Shown: positions 3,660-38,180 of the stretch, one piece after another | How positions within the stretch are numbered: position 1 is the stretch's first letter | How the letters are laid out: every line of letters begins with the position of its first letter | From: Escherichia coli | GTDB lineage: Bacteria; Pseudomonadota; Gammaproteobacteria; Enterobacterales; Enterobacteriaceae | Reading direction: 5' to 3' (one strand) | Assembly (NCBI RefSeq): GCF_003790525.1 | Contig: NZ_CP033635.1 | Length of the DNA: 64,000 nucleotides | Translations under genes and position numbers: made by a program | Notes under the pieces: model-generated | What the model saw: only the letters and a program-made list of their open reading frames with translations | What the model was told of the DNA's origin: nothing | Database searches by the model: none

Positions 3660-4494
<835 letters not shown>

Positions 4495-5280: not shown

Positions 5281-7014
5281 GTGAATATTCAGGCTCTTCT
5301 CTCAGAAAAAGTCCGTCAGGCCATGATTGCGGCAGGCGCGCCTGCGGATTGCGAACCGCAGGTTCGTCAGTCAGCAAAAGTTCAGTTCGGCGACTATCAG
5401 GCTAACGGCATGATGGCAGTTGCTAAAAAACTGGGTATGGCACCGCGACAATTAGCAGAGCAGGTGCTGACTCATCTGGATCTTAACGGTATCGCCAGCA
5501 AAGTTGAGATCGCGGGTCCTGGCTTTATCAACATTTTCCTTGATCCGGCATTCCTGGCTGATCATGTTCAGCAGGCGCTGGCGTCCGATCGTCTCGGTGT
5601 TGCTACGCCAGAAAAACAGACCATTGTGGTTGACTACTCTGCGCCAAACGTGGCGAAAGAGATGCATGTCGGTCACCTGCGCTCTACCATTATTGGTGAC
5701 GCAGCAGTTCGTACTCTGGAGTTCCTCGGTCACAAAGTGATTCGCGCAAACCACGTCGGCGACTGGGGCACTCAGTTCGGTATGCTGATTGCGTGGCTGG
5801 AAAAGCAGCAGCAGGAAAACGCCGGTGAAATGGAGCTGGCTGACCTTGAAGGTTTCTACCGCGATGCGAAAAAGCATTACGACGAAGATGAAGAGTTTGC
5901 CGAGCGTGCACGTAACTACGTGGTAAAACTGCAAAGCGGTGACGAATATTTCCGCGAGATGTGGCGCAAACTGGTCGACATCACCATGACGCAGAACCAG
6001 ATCACCTACGATCGTCTCAACGTGACGCTGACCCGTGATGACGTGATGGGTGAAAGCCTCTACAACCCAATGCTGCCGGGTATCGTAGCGGACCTGAAAG
6101 CCAAAGGTCTGGCAGTAGAAAGTGAAGGCGCGACCGTCGTATTCCTTGATGAGTTCAAAAACAAGGAAGGCGAACCGATGGGCGTGATCATTCAGAAGAA
6201 AGATGGTGGCTATCTCTACACCACCACTGATATCGCCTGTGCGAAATATCGTTATGAAACACTGCATGCCGATCGCGTGCTGTATTACATCGACTCCCGT
6301 CAGCATCAACACCTGATGCAGGCGTGGGCTATCGTCCGCAAAGCAGGCTATGTACCGGAATCCGTACCGCTGGAACACCACATGTTCGGCATGATGCTGG
6401 GTAAAGACGGCAAACCGTTCAAAACCCGCGCGGGTGGTACAGTGAAACTGGCAGACCTGCTGGATGAAGCCCTGGAACGCGCACGCCGTCTGGTGGCAGA
6501 GAAGAACCCGGATATGCCAGCCGATGAGCTGGAAAAACTGGCTAATGCGGTTGGTATTGGTGCGGTTAAATACGCAGATCTCTCCAAAAACCGTACCACT
6601 GACTACATCTTCGACTGGGACAACATGCTGGCGTTTGAGGGTAATACCGCGCCATACATGCAGTATGCTTACACGCGTGTATTGTCCGTGTTCCGTAAAG
6701 CAGAAATTGACGAAGAGCAACTGGCTGCAGCTCCGGTAATCATCCGTGAAGATCGTGAAGCACAACTGGCAGCTCGCCTGCTGCAGTTTGAAGAAACCCT
6801 CACTGTGGTTGCCCGTGAAGGCACGCCGCATGTGATGTGTGCTTACCTGTACGATCTGGCCGGTCTGTTCTCTGGCTTCTACGAGCACTGCCCGATCCTC
6901 AGCGCAGAAAACGAAGAAGTGCGTAACAGCCGTCTGAAACTGGCACAACTGACGGCGAAGACGCTGAAACTGGGTCTGGATACGCTGGGTATTGAGACAG
7001 TAGAGCGTATGTAA
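5281..7014 (+). CDS. argS: arginine--tRNA ligase
   Basis: 577-aa [22 protein letters not shown]..., HVGH motif present; recognised as ArgS. Confidence 0.97.
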
Positions 7015-7028
7015 TCGCGTTATACGGC

Positions 7029-7062
7029 AAAAGCCGATGTCATGGCAGACATCGGCTTTTTT
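7029..7062. terminator. bidirectional intrinsic terminator between argS and flhE
   Basis: Hairpin gccgatgtc-atggca-gacatcggc flanked by A-run and T-run. Confidence 0.75.
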
Positions 7063-7066
7063 ATCA

Positions 7067-7459
7067 TTAACGATAATTCACAATCACTTCATTCCGTTGT
7101 ACCTTTAGCGGCGGAATTAACCGCCCACCGCCAGGCACTTCCCAGATAAAGCGCAACGGTTCTGCCGCCGGTATACCGGAAAAGGCCACGGTGGTTCCGC
7201 TCTGCCCCTCTAATTCGACACAACGAGATTGTGAACACAAGCGAACCCGCAGCCCTACGGGAGTTGGGCCGATAAGCTGATAACGCCACGCCACCAGCGT
7301 CATCAATCCTGAAGCAGGTTGTCGAGTAGAAAGAGGCGCTGACGACATCGACTCACCACGGTGATTCAGCGTAACGCCCACACTACTCGCCTGCCACATC
7401 CCCTCTCCGGCGGCTTGCACCAGCAGCGGAAACAATAATATTGCTAATAAGGTTCTCAT
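7067..7459 (-). CDS. flhE: flagellar protein FlhE
   Basis: ORF MRTLLAILLFPLLVQAAGEGMWQ... recognised as FlhE. Confidence 0.93.
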   Translation of the reverse strand: MRTLLAILLFPLLVQAAGEGMWQASSVGVTLNHRGESMSSAPLSTRQPASGLMTLVAWRYQLIGPTPVGLRVRLCSQSRCVELEGQSGTTVAFSGIPAAEPLRFIWEVPGGGRLIPPLKVQRNEVIVNYR

Positions 7460-9537
7460 CATTTACCGCCAATTGTCGCCGTCATGCGGATATGTCGGTT
7501 ATCAGACAGTTCCAGATTCGACAGCACCACTAACTGCGGCAGACTGCGGCGCAGGAAGCGAGACAATAAAGGTCGCAGCGCGTGGTTCACCAATAAAACT
7601 GGCGGCGCACCCAACATCTCCTGACGGGATAGCGCTTCCTGAGTTTGCGCCAGTAAACGATCCGCCAGCCCTGGCTCCAGTCCGCCCCCGCCCTGCAGCG
7701 CCTGTAGTAACAAACGTTCCAGCGGTGTATCGAGGCCAATAACATGGACTTCATCTTTGCCAGGAAACCACTGCTGGGTAATCGCCCGTCCCAACGCCAC
7801 GCGCACGACGGCGGTTAATTCATGTGGATCGCTTTGGATGGGCGCATGTTCCGCCAGCGTTTCGAGAATAGTGCGCATATCGCGAATCGGTACTTTTTCA
7901 TCGAGCAGATTTTGCAGCACTTTATGCAGTGTGGTGAGCGTGACGACGCCAGGAACGAGATCTTCCGTCAGCTTTGGCATCTCCTGGGCGACGCGATCCA
8001 GCAGCTGTTGCGCCTCCTGACGACCAAACAGCTCTGCGGCATGCTGGCTAATGAGGTGGTTAAGATGCGTTGCCACCACCGTGCTGGCCTCAACCACGGT
8101 GTATCCCTGAATCTGCGCCTGTTCTTTAAGCGCACTTTCAATCCAGATAGCATTCAGGCCAAATGCCGGATCGACGGTCGCCTCACCAGGTAACGTCCCG
8201 GCAGCGGTACCAGGGTTAATCGCCAACCAACGCCCCGGATAAGCATCACCACTGCCTATCTCCACGCCTTTCATCAAAATGCGATAGCGGGCAGGTTGCA
8301 GATCCATATTGTCGCGAATGTGCACCACCGGCGGCAGAAACCCCATCTCCTGGGCAAATTTCTTGCGAATACTGCGTATACGGCCCAGCAACTCACCATC
8401 CTGCTGGAAATCGACCATCGGGATCAGGCGATAACCCACTTCCATTCCCAGAGAATCTTCCAGTTGTACATCGTTCCACGTCGCTTCGACAACGGTATTA
8501 TTCTCTGCCATTTTTACCGGTTTTGGTTCGGCAGGCGCTTTTTGTTCACGTCCACGGATCCACCAGGCCAGCCCCAGCAATCCGGCAGTGAACAGCAAAA
8601 ATACCAGGTTTGGCATTCCAGGCACCAGGCCGAGTAAACCGAGCACGGCGGCGCTTAACAACATAACGCTTGGGTTACTGAAAAGCTGATTCACCATCTG
8701 CTCGCCAACATCCTGATCGGTGCTGACACGCGTAACGATGACCCCCGCGGCGGTAGAAATCACCAACGCCGGAATTTGTGCCACCAGACCGTCGCCAATG
8801 GTCAATAGCGTATAACTTTCCGCCGCGTGTCCCATGCTCATGCCATGTTGCAGCACGCCGACCAGCAACCCGCCGACAACGTTAATGACCATGATGAGGA
8901 TCCCGGCGATGGCATCGCCGCGAACAAACTTACTTGCCCCATCCATTGAGCCGTAAAAATCGGCTTCCTGAGTCACTTCGGAGCGGCGTTTTTTCGCCTC
9001 ATCTTCACCAATCAATCCAGCGTTAAGGTCGGCGTCAATCGCCATCTGCTTACCCGGCATGCCATCGAGAACAAAGCGCGCACCCACTTCTGCGATACGC
9101 CCGGCACCTTTGGTAATGACCATAAAGTTGATGATCACGAGAATGACAAACACCACGATACCGATAGCGAAATTGCCACCAACGAGGAAGTGACCGAACG
9201 CTTCGACCACCTTTCCAGCCGCCGCCGCGCCGGTATGCCCTTCCATCAAAATGATACGGGTTGAAGCCACGTTAAGTGCCAGACGCAACAGCGTGGTAAA
9301 CAACAGGATGGTCGGAAACGCAGCAAACTCAAGCGTGCGCTGGGTAAACATCGCCACCAGCAACACCATGATCGACAAGGCAATATTGAAGGTAAACAGC
9401 AGGTCGAGTATGAATGCGGGCAGTGGCAGTACCATCATCGACAAGATCAACAGGATCAAAATCGGTCCGGCAAGGATCTGCCATTGTGTCGATTTCAGGT
9501 TTGCGGGCAGGCGCAGCATCGCGGCCAGATTACTCAT
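7459..9537 (-). CDS. flhA: flagellar export apparatus protein FlhA
   Basis: 692-aa ORF MSNLAAMLRLPANLKSTQWQILAGPILILL... Confidence 0.97.
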   Translation of the reverse strand: MSNLAAMLRLPANLKSTQWQILAGPILILLILSMMVLPLPAFILDLLFTFNIALSIMVLLVAMFTQRTLEFAAFPTILLFTTLLRLALNVASTRIILMEGHTGAAAAGKVVEAFGHFLVGGNFAIGIVVFVILVIINFMVITKGAGRIAEVGARFVLDGMPGKQMAIDADLNAGLIGEDEAKKRRSEVTQEADFYGSMDGASKFVRGDAIAGILIMVINVVGGLLVGVLQHGMSMGHAAESYTLLTIGDGLVAQIPALVISTAAGVIVTRVSTDQDVGEQMVNQLFSNPSVMLLSAAVLGLLGLVPGMPNLVFLLFTAGLLGLAWWIRGREQKAPAEPKPVKMAENNTVVEATWNDVQLEDSLGMEVGYRLIPMVDFQQDGELLGRIRSIRKKFAQEMGFLPPVVHIRDNMDLQPARYRILMKGVEIGSGDAYPGRWLAINPGTAAGTLPGEATVDPAFGLNAIWIESALKEQAQIQGYTVVEASTVVATHLNHLISQHAAELFGRQEAQQLLDRVAQEMPKLTEDLVPGVVTLTTLHKVLQNLLDEKVPIRDMRTILETLAEHAPIQSDPHELTAVVRVALGRAITQQWFPGKDEVHVIGLDTPLERLLLQALQGGGGLEPGLADRLLAQTQEALSRQEMLGAPPVLLVNHALRPLLSRFLRRSLPQLVVLSNLELSDNRHIRMTATIGGK

Positions 9538-10678: not shown

Positions 10679-10914
10679 GTCGCCAATCCTGGAAAGAGTA
10701 TTAAGCGTAAATGATGCCAGATCGCAAAGCGTTCAATGGTTTGAGTAAGGGGCAAAACAGGCGGGATTTAGGGCGTTTATGCAAAAAACAGGTTCAGTTG
10801 CAGAACGTTTTGCGAACCATTTTCCAGTTCTGATATTTAGCCATTTAGCCTATAGAATCGCCCACCGCCTCTCTGTTAGTTTGCTAATAATTAAATTATT
10901 ACAAAGGCGATCAA
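10679..10914. promoter_or_regulatory. divergent intergenic region: flhBAE class-2 promoter region (minus) and putative promoter of the inserted cassette (plus)
   Basis: 236-bp gap between divergent starts; candidate sigma70-like elements ttgcga (10810-10815) and tatagaat (10851-10858); RBS aagg 9-12 nt upstream of ATG 10915. Confidence 0.4.
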
Positions 10915-12423
10915 ATGGAATGGCAACAATTGCTTAACTGCAACCGTCGGAAAGATAATCTAAAAAAAACCAGCATAGAATTTTTACATCCCCTTGCTAG
11001 CGGAAGACAAGAGATCGAGCGGGATTACGACCGATTACTTTTTGCTGCGCCAACTCGTCGGCTTGCGGATAAAACACAAGTTTTCCCGTTAGATCAAAAT
11101 GACAGTATACGGACGAGGCTGACTCATTCTCACGAAGTAGCAAACTTTGCTCGCGGAATAGGAATGAGACTCGCTTTCGAGATGAAGGAACACATCTTTG
11201 GCGAAATACCCACGGGGATTGTCGTTGAACGCGACGTTCCTGCTCTGTTAGCAGCGATCGGACTGGCACACGATCTCGGTAATCCACCATTTGGGCATCA
11301 AGGTGAAGCAGCGATGCGCGCATGGTTTAATAAAAATCTTCCAGGCCTTCTTGATAAAGAAGTAAACAGCGAAATATATAACGACTTTCTGCAATTTGAT
11401 GGAAACTCACAAACCCTACGCCTGGTTACCAAATTACAAATTATTAACGATAACTTTGGTCTGAATCTGACCTATGCCACGCTGGCTGCACTGATCAAAT
11501 ATCCCCGAGCTTCATATTCATCGGACAAACATTGGAAAAAGCACGGTTTTTTCTATTCTGAGCATGAGGTTGTCATGGATGTCTGGCAGCAAACGGGCCT
11601 TGGCGTACCAGGTAATGATGCCGGTTGCCGCCACCCATTTACCTGGATAATGGAAGCTTGCGACGATATTGCCTACTCTGTGCTTGACGCAGAAGATACC
11701 ATCAAGAAAGGATTTGCCTCATACCAGGATTTGCGTGATTTTTTGATGTCACAATCCGAGCCGAACGATGTAATTCAACATGTTATTGAAGCTGTAGAGG
11801 CCAAAAATGACGCCTGGAAAGAGCAAAGAAATGCACTTTCACCGGCGGAAATTAATGAACTCAGTATGCAAATGTTCAGAGTTTATGCCACCAGTGCATT
11901 GATTAATGCCGTAGTAGAAGCCTTTCGCGAACAATTACCCACGCTGATGCAGCGTGACTGCCCGTTCAAAGATTTAATCTCGCAAAGCAAAGGTCACGCT
12001 CTCTGCACTGCCCTGAAAATGTTCGACCGAACACGAGGCTACCTTCATCGTTCAGTCTTGCAACTGGAACTTAGGGGATCTAATTACATTACTAACTTGA
12101 TGGATATGCTCTGGATTGGCATCCATGGACACAAAACAAAGAAACAACGAGACGGAGAACGCGAGTCCGCGTCTGCAGATAACCTTTTTGTTTCTCGTGA
12201 AGAATACCTGTCGGATACTCCCTTTGGTCGCTATGCTTACGGGACAATCTCTGAAAATTATCGCCGTGTGTTTGAAGATCCCGCCAATACACTCCCTGCT
12301 CTTTATAAAGAAGCGCAGTTGCTTACCGACGCAATCTCAGGCATGACGGATAGTTATTTAATGCGCCTTCACGATGAGCTAAAATCACTGTATGAATGTG
12401 GTCTCAAACACCCAACAGCTTGA
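10915..12423 (+). CDS. dGTP triphosphohydrolase (Dgt)-family HD-domain protein, extra paralog in non-native locus
   Basis: 502-aa ORF; motifs RRLADKTQVFPL, RTRLTHSHEV, HDLGNPPFGHQGE, FDGNSQTLRL, WIMEACDDIAYSVLDAEDTI, ISGMTDSYL align with E. coli Dgt by eye; AT-rich; opposite strand to flanking flagellar genes. Confidence 0.8.
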   Translation: MEWQQLLNCNRRKDNLKKTSIEFLHPLASGRQEIERDYDRLLFAAPTRRLADKTQVFPLDQNDSIRTRLTHSHEVANFARGIGMRLAFEMKEHIFGEIPTGIVVERDVPALLAAIGLAHDLGNPPFGHQGEAAMRAWFNKNLPGLLDKEVNSEIYNDFLQFDGNSQTLRLVTKLQIINDNFGLNLTYATLAALIKYPRASYSSDKHWKKHGFFYSEHEVVMDVWQQTGLGVPGNDAGCRHPFTWIMEACDDIAYSVLDAEDTIKKGFASYQDLRDFLMSQSEPNDVIQHVIEAVEAKNDAWKEQRNALSPAEINELSMQMFRVYATSALINAVVEAFREQLPTLMQRDCPFKDLISQSKGHALCTALKMFDRTRGYLHRSVLQLELRGSNYITNLMDMLWIGIHGHKTKKQRDGERESASADNLFVSREEYLSDTPFGRYAYGTISENYRRVFEDPANTLPALYKEAQLLTDAISGMTDSYLMRLHDELKSLYECGLKHPTA

Positions 12424-13144
12424 ACAGCGTATCGCCGATTTTTTTACGCTTAGTGATGAGCATAAGAAAGCCAGAGTATTACTTGATACTCTGGCCTGTT
12501 CCTGTCCGGCCTGGATTTTTGGCGGGATGGTGCGTGACTTAGGCTTGTTTGGCGTCGAGGGATTCTCTTCAGACCTTGATATCGTCATCGGTCGCTCCCG
12601 TGAGGAACTCTTCCGGACATTGGCTGAACTGCCCGTCAAACAACTGCGTTTTAATAAGTTCGGTGGGATCCGTTTTCGTTATCACGACTTCGAATTTGAT
12701 ATCTGGAACCTCAATGAGACATGGGCATTTCGGGAAAAACTTATATTTTGTGAGGATGAATCAAGTCTGTTAAACACTACGCTGATGAGTTGGGATGCCG
12801 TGCTCTATGATCTACGTAGTGAAAAAATTATCAGTAAAGATAATTATTTGACCGACTTAAATCGCAGACATCTTGAACTTGTTCTTCATACTAACCCCAA
12901 TCCAAGCGGTTCGGTAACGAAAATTTTACGCACTATTTTTACTAAGCAGGTAAAGAGTTTAGGTCCGGAACTCTGTCATTTCTTGCACCATGAACTGACG
13001 AAAAAACGTTATGAAGTTTGGCATCATTACGATGTACTGCACTACCAGTCATCGTCATTTTCTCGTTCACAATTTAATGCGTTGATAAATTTACTGGCGC
13101 AACAATCACGCTTCGCTGATCTAAAATTATCAAATTACAAATAA
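12392..13144 (+). CDS. Pol-beta superfamily nucleotidyltransferase, CCA-adding/poly(A) polymerase head-like
   Basis: 250-aa ORF with IFGGMVRDLGLFGVEGFSSDLDIVI, matching the GGxVRD...DxD head motif of class II tRNA nucleotidyltransferases; overlaps preceding gene by 32 nt; very AT-rich. Confidence 0.55.
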   Translation: MNVVSNTQQLEQRIADFFTLSDEHKKARVLLDTLACSCPAWIFGGMVRDLGLFGVEGFSSDLDIVIGRSREELFRTLAELPVKQLRFNKFGGIRFRYHDFEFDIWNLNETWAFREKLIFCEDESSLLNTTLMSWDAVLYDLRSEKIISKDNYLTDLNRRHLELVLHTNPNPSGSVTKILRTIFTKQVKSLGPELCHFLHHELTKKRYEVWHHYDVLHYQSSSFSRSQFNALINLLAQQSRFADLKLSNYK

Positions 13145-13231
13145 CCATCCTCCACATACTTCCTGAACGATACCCGCCCCCCTGCTATCGGCCTGGCATC
13201 ATCGCGCAGGCCGAAGTTAAGGCAATACAAA

Positions 13232-19561: not shown

Positions 19562-19588
19562 TTATCGGCAAGGAAGGGGGAAACTTTA
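19562..19588 (-). promoter_or_regulatory. sigma28 (FliA) class-3 promoter of tar-tap-cheRBYZ operon
   Basis: Minus-strand TAAAGTTT-N11-GCCGATAA, perfect consensus. Confidence 0.9.
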
Positions 19589-19616
19589 TTGCTGATGCCA
19601 CCCGCCGCGAAATTGA

Positions 19617-19647
19617 AATAAAAAACCCGATGCGCAGATCATCGGGT
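19617..19647 (-). terminator. intrinsic terminator of motAB-cheAW (mocha) operon
   Basis: Hairpin cccgatg/catcggg followed on minus strand by a long T-run. Confidence 0.75.
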
Positions 19648-19674
19648 TCATTTCAATTGAGGAAATCGGGAGAA

Positions 19675-37877: not shown

Positions 37878-37964
37878 TGGTACCCGGAGCGGGACTTGAA
37901 CCCGCACAGCGCGAACGCCGAGGGATTTTAAATCCCTTGTGTCTACCGATTCCACCATCCGGGC
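37878..37964 (-). tRNA. leuZ: tRNA-Leu (anticodon UAA)
   Basis: Reverse complement reads GCCCGGATGGTGGAATCGGTAGACACAAGGGATTTAAAATCCC...GGGTACCA with CCA end. Confidence 0.93.
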
Positions 37965-37976
37965 TCGGGAAGAAAG

Positions 37977-38050
37977 TGGAGGCGCGTTCCGGAGTCGAAC
38001 CGGACTAGACGGATTTGCAATCCGCTACATAACCGCTTTGTTAACGCGCC
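37977..38050 (-). tRNA. cysT: tRNA-Cys (anticodon GCA)
   Basis: Reverse complement reads GGCGCGTTAACAAAGCGGTTATGTAGCGGATTGCAAATCCGTC...CTCCA. Confidence 0.93.
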
Positions 38051-38104
38051 AAATTCTTCAGGCCTTTCAGCCAGACATCCGCTTGACGCCGATGTCTTTT
38101 AAAC

Positions 38105-38180
<76 letters not shown>

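Follow-up and report, generated by a model that had tools for sequence, protein, structure and literature searches.

A probable Clover-type anti-phage operon between flhB and cheZ in Escherichia coli

Clover is a two-gene anti-phage system that pairs a deoxynucleoside triphosphatase (dNTPase) with a nucleotidyltransferase (NTase), namely the deoxyguanosine triphosphate hydrolase (dGTPase) CloA and its partner CloB (Yamaguchi et al., bioRxiv 2025.07.09.663793, PMC12265719). More than 650 such systems were reported by these authors, who cite Nicastro et al. (2023) for the first bioinformatic mention of the dNTPase–NTase pair. CloB belongs to the Pol-beta superfamily, has the active-site motif [D/E]h[D/E]..h[D/E]h and forms 5'-triphosphothymidyl-3'5'-thymidine (p3diT), a product obtained with the Salmonella, E. 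coli H5 and distant Xanthomonas enzymes. According to the same study, p3diT occupies the dimer interface of CloA and inhibits it with a half-maximal inhibitory concentration of ~7.6 uM, the dinucleotide was found bound to CloA, cryo-EM structures revealed a CloA octamer resembling a "four-leaf clover", and deoxythymidine triphosphate (dTTP) activated CloA in the tested orthologs, which defend the cell by depletion of dGTP. Replacement of D71 and D73 of Salmonella CloB by alanine abolished p3diT synthesis, CloB active-site mutants were toxic in a CloA-dependent manner, CloA mutated in the HD domain lost defence, and the 3RA mutant of Salmonella CloA was insensitive to p3diT; the operons examined, those of Salmonella enterica SA20044414 and E. 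coli H5, conferred more than 10,000-fold protection against T5-like phages (PMC12265719). Here, a homologous gene pair is described from a stretch of 64,000 nucleotides of E. coli contig NZ_CP033635.1 (assembly GCF_003790525.1), referred to as the window, in which two overlapping genes at positions 10915–13144 separate flhB from cheZ (Table 1).

The upstream gene product was identified by its similarity to the eight-chain PDB entries 9p8s–9p8v ("DNTP triphosphohydrolase", 471–473 amino acids [aa]), which contain Salmonella CloA (E = 5.6e-191; 62% identity in BLASTP and 67% over the aligned columns), and it also matched the Shewanella dGTPase in entry 9p8w (E = 2.5e-24). Profile searches assigned it to the dGTPases in the broad sense, with E = 5.8e-71 for the PADLOC dGTPase model and 284.9 bits for the broad subfamily TIGR01353, which was passed at a cutoff of 152.35. 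The scores remained below the cutoffs of the models for Dgt and stand-alone dGTPases (NF003429, 270.9 vs. 405; NF002205, 358.3 vs. 439; NF041026, 182.9 vs. 400). All six catalytic residues of Salmonella CloA (H69, H117, D118, H126, E129, and D242) are identical in the window protein (H71, H119, D120, H128, E131, and D250). The same applies to the five residues that contact dGTP, to the nine residues of the dTTP pocket (Salmonella R47, D61, Q172, K256, S418, N420, A444, T449, and Y452), and to nine of the ten residues of the p3diT pocket (Salmonella T25, R29, R34, D37, R38, F41, N75, N181, Q311, and R314). For this mapping, numbering from the deposited Salmonella CloA sequence reproduced the residues named in the Clover paper with one exception, the "Q377" of the paper; the deposited sequence has E377 at this position, and the window protein has E385.

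As judged from the aligned sequences, it is the p3diT and dTTP pockets that discriminate CloA from the housekeeping Dgt. The Dgt of E. coli K-12, which is 29% identical to the window CloA, has all six catalytic residues, but only three of the ten p3diT-pocket and four of the nine dTTP-pocket residues, and from the arginine-rich group R31, R36, D39, and R40 it retains only R40. Stand-alone anti-phage dGTPases (Tal et al. 2022), such as the Shewanella SpdGTPase (9p8w) and the family covered by NF041026, likewise share with CloA the HD dGTPase fold and the catalytic residues, as does Dgt; unlike CloA, these enzymes function without an NTase partner. The stand-alone defence enzymes, too, reportedly act by depleting dGTP. 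An alignment of 44 CloA proteins encoded next to cloB, three of which are truncated, indicated that the pockets are maintained throughout the family: R31, R36, D39, R40, and F43 are kept in 40–41 of the 41 proteins that have a residue at the respective column, and Q319 and R322 in 42–43 of 44. Conservation of the dTTP-pocket residues amounts to 38–43 of 44, with A473 (31/44) as the exception.

Single-sequence searches with the 250-aa product of the downstream gene against PADLOC, NCBIfam, PHROGs, and the PDB sequences returned nothing usable; its identification as CloB is owed to the neighboring gene and to the literature. The open reading frame (ORF) begins with ATG and has the same coordinates in the RefSeq annotation of E. 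coli SMS-3-5 (WP_001103661.1, "hypothetical protein"). Since no PDB entry exists for Salmonella CloB, this protein was recovered as the ORF located 3' of a CloA gene whose product (P0202) is 99% identical to the deposited CloA. On this Salmonella enterica contig (JAMTVR010000004.1, hereafter L050), cloA (6001–7416) is followed by an ORF of 277 aa (7370–8203) that overlaps it by 47 nt; the distance from the CloA start to the CloB stop is 2203 bp, which is exactly the operon length given in the Clover paper, and the D-x-D motif of the ORF falls on D71/D73 in the numbering of that paper. The window CloB aligned with this ORF over 249 aa (35% identity, E = 3e-55), and D61/D63 came to lie opposite D71/D73. 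The window pair thus resembles the described system in the order and overlap of the two genes, the conserved catalytic residues and both pockets of CloA, the full-length homology of CloB, and the placement in an accessory island. It differs in location, as the Salmonella operon is part of an island with integrase and insertion sequence (IS) elements. In the Clover paper a CloB mutant is named D71A/D73A in the text and in Fig. 1 and D61A/D63A in the legend of Fig. 3, the latter being the numbering of a window-type protein.

A sequence-only reading of the window, made without database searches, had described the 250-aa protein as a stand-alone NTase head with the class II signature GGxVRD followed by D-x-D, the class of the CCA-adding enzymes and poly(A) polymerases (PAP). 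The signature, which in the window protein consists of a helix-turn motif (G44-G45-M-V-R48-D49) and the predicted metal-binding carboxylates of D61-L-D63, is indeed invariant or nearly so in every alignment. Among 35 close homologs, G44, G45, R48, D49, S60, D61, D63, and D103 do not vary, and in 102 family members with identities down to ~25%, the invariant residues are G45, R48, D61, D63, N88, G92, D103, W105, and W111. In 44 homologs taken from genomes, G44, G45, R48, D49, D61, D63, and D103 are kept in 42–44 cases, T130, W134, and D135 in all, and T129 in 42. This degree of conservation indicates that the motif is under selection and is no chance match. The family is also much larger than suggested by the first homolog search, which had yielded only 52 enterobacterial clusters; at E ≤ 1e-3 it comprises 1029 representative clusters, and of the 150 members listed almost every one has a length of 195–375 aa.

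The fold expected from the signature was found in the structure model. AlphaFold2, supplied with an alignment of 35 sequences, produced a model of CloB with a mean predicted local distance difference test value of 92.4 and a predicted template modeling score of 0.89, and no segment fell below 50. Foldseek comparison of this model with the PDB gave 46 matches at E ≤ 1e-3 (4e-8 to 9e-5, probability 1.00), all of which fall into three groups, the first two being the CCA-adding enzymes of Thermotoga maritima, Bacillus stearothermophilus, human, Arabidopsis, and a psychrophile, and the tRNA nucleotidyltransferase or "tRNA-processing enzyme" entries 1vfg, 4wby–4wc2, and 3wfo–3wfs. Entries 3aqk, 3aql, and 3aqm, which we take to be E. 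coli poly(A) polymerase I, form the third group. Query-normalized template modeling scores against the class II enzymes ranged from 0.46 to 0.62. Other Pol-beta families (TUT7, LinB, FAM46) appeared only at E > 2e-3, none of the 50 best PDB matches listed carries a CD-NTase (cGAS/DncV-like nucleotidyltransferase) or cGAS title, and in PADLOC no family, and hence no CD-NTase, was matched by CloB at E ≤ 0.1. Support for a class II head on the sequence level is weak but consistent. The Pfam PolyA_pol head profile (PF01743), against which a comparison had been proposed beforehand, remained below significance with the window protein (E = 0.099, 13.4 bits) and detected 8 of the 102 relatives at E ≤ 1e-3 and 45 at E ≤ 0.1; a CloB family profile matched the CCA-adding enzyme of T. 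maritima (3h37) over motif A with E = 0.0025.

Compared with these enzymes, CloB appears in the model to be a cut-down class II NTase that retains the head and a helical, neck-like region. The model ends four helices after the head, and with 250 aa as opposed to 342–517 aa in the matched PDB targets and ~370–520 aa in the matched enzymes, the protein is too short for the tRNA- and RNA-binding body and tail, whose absence had been correctly noted from the sequence. Further differences from the class II enzymes are an additional N-terminal segment of two helices (residues 7–37) and, in the characterized orthologs, the use of a deoxynucleotide, dTTP, and the release of a free dinucleotide instead of a lengthened tRNA or RNA; the likenesses extend from the Pol-beta head fold and the GG-x-x-RD...D-x-D motif A to the collinear neck-like segment. 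In class II enzymes, ribose and base are selected by motif B (RRD) and motif D (EDxxR). Pairwise hhalign comparisons of CloB with single PcnB and Cca sequences were collinear, at probabilities of only 9.7–12%, and placed T129-T130-L131 opposite the R-R-D of PcnB (9.7%) and N-P-N-P-S-G...ILR opposite EDPxRxLR. Tentatively, motifs B and D thus may have been replaced in CloB by other conserved residues (T129-T130-L and N-P-N-P-x-G...ILR). In that case, CloB would be a CCA/PAP-type enzyme of class II that was turned into a deoxy-dinucleotide synthase by this replacement, a relationship absent from the discussion in the Clover paper.

The linkage of the two genes was assessed in 38 loci obtained by a scan of one genome per species with a query alignment of eight sequences. 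These loci derive from Erwinia, Aeromonas, Photobacterium, Catenovulum, Lysobacter, Pseudomonas, methylotrophs, and various metagenome-assembled genomes. In all 38, a CloA-like gene (45–68% identical) is located directly upstream of the cloB homolog on the same strand, and in nearly every locus examined the genes overlap or abut, which agrees with the earlier suggestion that the NTase acts together with the adjacent HD hydrolase. An HD-type gene even precedes the most distant homolog of the first search, a metagenomic protein of ~30% identity (P0052; contigs L005/L006, 496–6699), whose gene is surrounded by several transposases and adjoins a gene with a GmrSD_N domain, so that the locus has the typical look of a defence island. 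Three of the 38 loci (L013, L025, and L048) are visibly decayed. With L001 and L004 (3365–6753) included, decay takes three forms: in Enterobacter hormaechei an IS3-type element splits cloA and leaves cloB intact, in Erwinia persicina NBRC 102418 cloA is broken, and in Buttiauxella both genes are remnants. An intact cloA next to a broken cloB was not found among the loci examined, of which few are decayed. This asymmetry, a loss of cloA or of both genes but never of cloB alone, fits the reported toxicity of CloA in cells without CloB.

Based on the conservation of sequence and gene order, the window pair is very probably a Clover operon that acts as its characterized orthologs do, with CloB as p3diT synthase and CloA as dGTPase effector. 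CloB would join two molecules of dTTP to linear p3diT by means of a Pol-beta triad formed by D61, D63, and D103. The dinucleotide would then be bound in a pocket at the CloA dimer interface (R31, R36, D39, R40, F43, N77, N184, Q319, and R322) and hold the dGTPase inactive, so that uninfected cells would be spared poisoning by CloA. Infection by a T5-like phage would raise the cellular dTTP level, and dTTP would fill an adjacent, mutually exclusive pocket (R49, D63, Q175, K264, S446, N448, T478, and Y481); its binding would complete the active site, and hydrolysis of dGTP by CloA would starve phage DNA replication. The same logic, in which a nucleotide made constitutively by an NTase restrains a toxic effector until infection, is realized in Hailong (oligodeoxyadenylate) and Panoptes/MISS (2'3'-c-di-AMP), both named as analogues in the Clover paper (PMC12265719). 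Their NTases belong to other lineages, their signals and effectors are different as well, and the window pair showed no match to them in sequence or structure; moreover, the Clover trigger is a metabolite, dTTP, that competes with the signal, as opposed to a loss of the signal.

Several observations weigh against a simple transfer of function from the orthologs. The mechanism was established for the Salmonella and E. coli H5 systems (PMC12265719), and p3diT synthesis, activation by dTTP, and phage defence are ascribed to the window pair by homology only, with a preprint as the source. The identity of CloB to its characterized Salmonella counterpart is low, and the E. coli H5 operon has 2200 bp compared to 2230 bp in the window, so that the two possibly do not represent the same allele. 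In CloA, the p3diT-contacting T25 is replaced by L27 at a position where the family has T, S, L, or A; two residues of the switch region (L174 to I177 and Q427 to D455) and one contact between dimers in the oligomer (H263 to Q271) differ as well, and an extra loop of ~20 aa (approximately residues 413–432) is lacking in Salmonella CloA. This segment, DGERESASADNLFVSREEYL (approximately 12151–12210), belongs to the C-terminal helical bundle and lies shortly N-terminal of the dTTP-pocket residues S446 and N448. It is also missing from the CloA of Enterobacter; in the CloA of Erwinia rhapontici (L012), a stretch of comparable length occupies this position. A JGI contig with a flhB–cheZ pair of exactly 2200 bp (L008, P0003) was considered as the E. 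coli H5 system, but its FlhB and CheZ are only 83–85% identical to those of E. coli, and the assignment was dismissed as unproven.

Because of the low CloB identity and the additional CloA loop, the enterobacterial lineage at the flhB–cheZ site could be functionally distinct, with another inhibitory nucleotide, activation threshold, or trigger, but this is regarded as unlikely. Quite unlikely is the closely related interpretation that the architecture is that of Clover and either the CloB product is not p3diT or the cue sensed by CloA is not dTTP. Here the substitutions of T25, L174, and Q427 could be added to the loop and the CloB divergence; yet the identical p3diT-pocket residues include D39, N77, and Q319, which would read the base, the completely identical dTTP pocket contains D63 and T478 as further base readers and Y481 as the stacking residue, and even the distant Xanthomonas CloB yields p3diT (PMC12265719). 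A messenger that activates the HD enzyme, in the style of CBASS (cyclic oligonucleotide-based anti-phage signaling system) and its CD-NTases, would follow the usual logic of NTase–effector defence pairs and would be compatible with the "signalling nucleotide" offered by the sequence-only reading. Inactivation of ortholog CloB, however, causes CloA-dependent toxicity, and p3diT inhibits CloA (PMC12265719). Together with the conserved inhibitor pocket of the window CloA, a decay pattern that fits tolerated loss of cloA, albeit in few decayed loci, and the lack of a CD-NTase match in PADLOC, this renders an activating signal very unlikely.

It is highly improbable that CloB acts on nucleic acid ends, as a minimal tRNA or RNA 3'-end NTase or a MenT-like toxin, or nucleotidylates a protein. 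Among solved structures, the closest folds are those of poly(A) polymerase and of the enzymes that add CCA or A to tRNA, and the class II motif A is intact, but CloB has no tRNA-binding body or tail, other residues occupy the RRD and EDxxR positions according to the weak alignments, and a dinucleotide was found bound to CloA (PMC12265719). The invariable pairing with CloA and the ligand pocket conserved in that protein also argue for a small molecule as the CloB product. Among the functions proposed beforehand, synthesis of a signaling nucleotide is the one borne out by the orthologs, and target nucleotidylation and addition to tRNA, RNA, or DNA ends found no support. In chemical terms, p3diT synthesis also attaches dTMP to the 3'-OH of dTTP, in a single step and without a template. 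Equally remote is a non-immune role as a second, housekeeping-type dGTPase with a regulatory partner that tunes deoxynucleotide pools, for example during transitions in motility or growth. The RefSeq name "dgt", the flagellar and chemotaxis neighborhood, and the same flhB–cheZ site in several enterobacterial genera would be in line with such a role. On the other hand, only 106 of the 5426 complete E. coli genomes contain the pair, its dGTPase is only distantly related to Dgt and scores below all NCBIfam equivalog cutoffs for it, homologs elsewhere adjoin transposases, GmrSD, or integrases, and orthologs protect strongly against T5-like phages (PMC12265719). The CD-NTase/CBASS-like, MenT-like toxin, and housekeeping-Dgt interpretations were rejected on this evidence, and the Clover interpretation is retained.

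Clover was already described in 2025, and the window locus is an ordinary member and no new kind of system; for the same reason, the novelty implied by the sequence-only reading for a stand-alone NTase head does not hold. That reading also recognized neither the anti-phage context nor the inhibitory role of the signal, which is a brake on a toxic dGTPase and no activator. Clover is of interest as a case in which an immune effector reads a metabolite, dTTP, as the cue of infection and in which the inhibitory nucleotide competing with it comes from a partner enzyme; this logic accounts for the ability of cells to harbor a toxic, dNTP-depleting enzyme without harm. The practical value of the present locus lies in the annotation of cloA and cloB. 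RefSeq/PGAP names the CloA homolog "dgt" (window 10915–13144; L054 20236–22465), which is misleading in view of its low identity to K-12 Dgt, and no model that recognizes CloB exists in PADLOC 2.0.0, NCBIfam 20.0, PHROGs v4, or Pfam, so that pipelines relying on these collections would report at most a lone dGTPase. The class II relatives of CloB and the flhB–cheZ site are minor additions that may aid work on CloB specificity and on hotspots of defence islands.

The pair occupies an accessory insert in a conserved chromosomal region, with argS, flhE, flhA, and flhB on one side and cheZ, cheY, cheB, cheR, tap, and tar on the other. Both ORFs are located on the + strand between the start of flhB (10678) and the stop of cheZ (13232), both encoded on the - strand. 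Homology to K-12 ends near 10775 and restarts between 13190 and 13219, and the insert stands in place of ~95 bp of sequence resembling repetitive extragenic palindromic (REP) elements in K-12. The G + C content is 0.475–0.478 over 10–14 kb and 0.53–0.55 in the flanks. The genomes that carry the full insert (~2%; the flanks are present in 5385) always have it on the chromosome, in single copy, and with at least 95% identity, and among the 5426 complete E. coli genomes cloB has no DNA-level relatives other than this copy. The queried segment of the window is 100% identical to the E. coli SMS-3-5 chromosome.

At the flhB–cheZ site, the pair is found in Escherichia, Enterobacter, Pseudescherichia, Buttiauxella, and other enterobacteria, and a pair adjacent to cheZ occurs in Atlantibacter and Pluralibacter. 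Clover is thus recurrent at this site in the Enterobacteriaceae, which may reflect either long-standing vertical inheritance with several losses or a hotspot of recombination, and the position in several genera might tie cloAB expression to the motility regulon. On contig L008, genes for a rhamnosidase, a major facilitator superfamily transporter, and an AraC regulator are extra cargo between flhB and cloA. The overlap of the two genes suggests a single transcript with translational coupling. Scans for promoters and terminators found nothing above background, and sigma-70-like sites are no more numerous in the region than expected from shuffled sequence; one candidate is listed in Table 1. An inverted repeat, GGCCTG-(11 nt)-CAGGCC, is located at the right insert junction between the stop codons of cloB and cheZ (13190–13212). 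It was not among the hits of the terminator scan and may be a bidirectional terminator or the remnant of a REP element; the matching empty site of K-12 carries REP-like sequence.

Table 1. Coordinates of the predicted cloAB operon and associated features in the window.
Feature	Position	Strand	Basis
cloA homolog; 502-aa HD-domain dGTP triphosphohydrolase, predicted effector	10915..12423	+	Homology to Salmonella CloA
CloA R31...R36...D39-R40; arginine-rich half of the predicted p3diT pocket	11005..11034	+	Salmonella R29/R34/D37/R38
CloA H119-D120; HD metal-binding motif	11269..11274	+	Mapped to Salmonella H117/D118; conserved in 41-42 of 44
CloA HE dyad H128/E131	11296-11307	+	Mapped to Salmonella H126/E129; conserved in 41-42 of 44
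cloB homolog; 250-aa Pol-beta-superfamily nucleotidyltransferase, class II (CCA/PAP) head type	12392..13144	+	Homology, AlphaFold2, Foldseek
CloB motif A region, residues 42-66, IFGGMVRDLGLFGVEGFSSDLDIVI	12515..12589	+	Invariant or near-invariant in three alignments
CloB D103; predicted third catalytic carboxylate	12698..12700	+	Invariant in 102/102 and 44/44; strand 100-106 of model
CloB T129-T130-L-M-S-W134-D135; family-specific conserved segment where class II enzymes have motif B (RRD-F-T-I-N)	12776..12796	+	Conservation
Overlap of cloA 3' end and cloB 5' end, 32 nt	12392..12423	+	ORF coordinates
Accessory insert relative to E. coli K-12, ~2.4 kb	10775..13219	.	Alignment with K-12 flhB-cheZ intergenic region
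Candidate sigma-70 promoter for cloAB, CTGATA-17-TAGAAT, weak	10830..10858	+	Consensus scan, 9/12 matches

The Salmonella operon on contig L050 (1–11245) is part of a mobile island that encodes a tyrosine integrase and two transposases of the IS3 family. Another cluster of this island, which encodes QueC, a fusion of a PfkB kinase and a nucleoside 2-deoxyribosyltransferase domain, a D12-class methyltransferase, and an Ogg-HhH protein, may serve DNA modification or be an additional defence module. In the Clover paper the PDB codes are printed as 8P9S–8P9V, followed by 9P8W; the matching entries are 9p8s–9p8v, and a transposition of characters is evident. The IMG identifier of CloB differs between two of its methods sections (2897288308 and 2897288306). 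Rfam searches of the window detected, at 3660–3967 (- strand), 19578–19655 (+ strand), and 37881–38180 (- strand), the MicL small RNA, the C0465 RNA, and three tRNA genes. The remainder of the window, checked against the annotation of SMS-3-5, is ordinary E. coli core genome with torY, cutC, yecM, argS, the flh, che, and mot genes, flhDC, uspC, otsBA, and araFGH.

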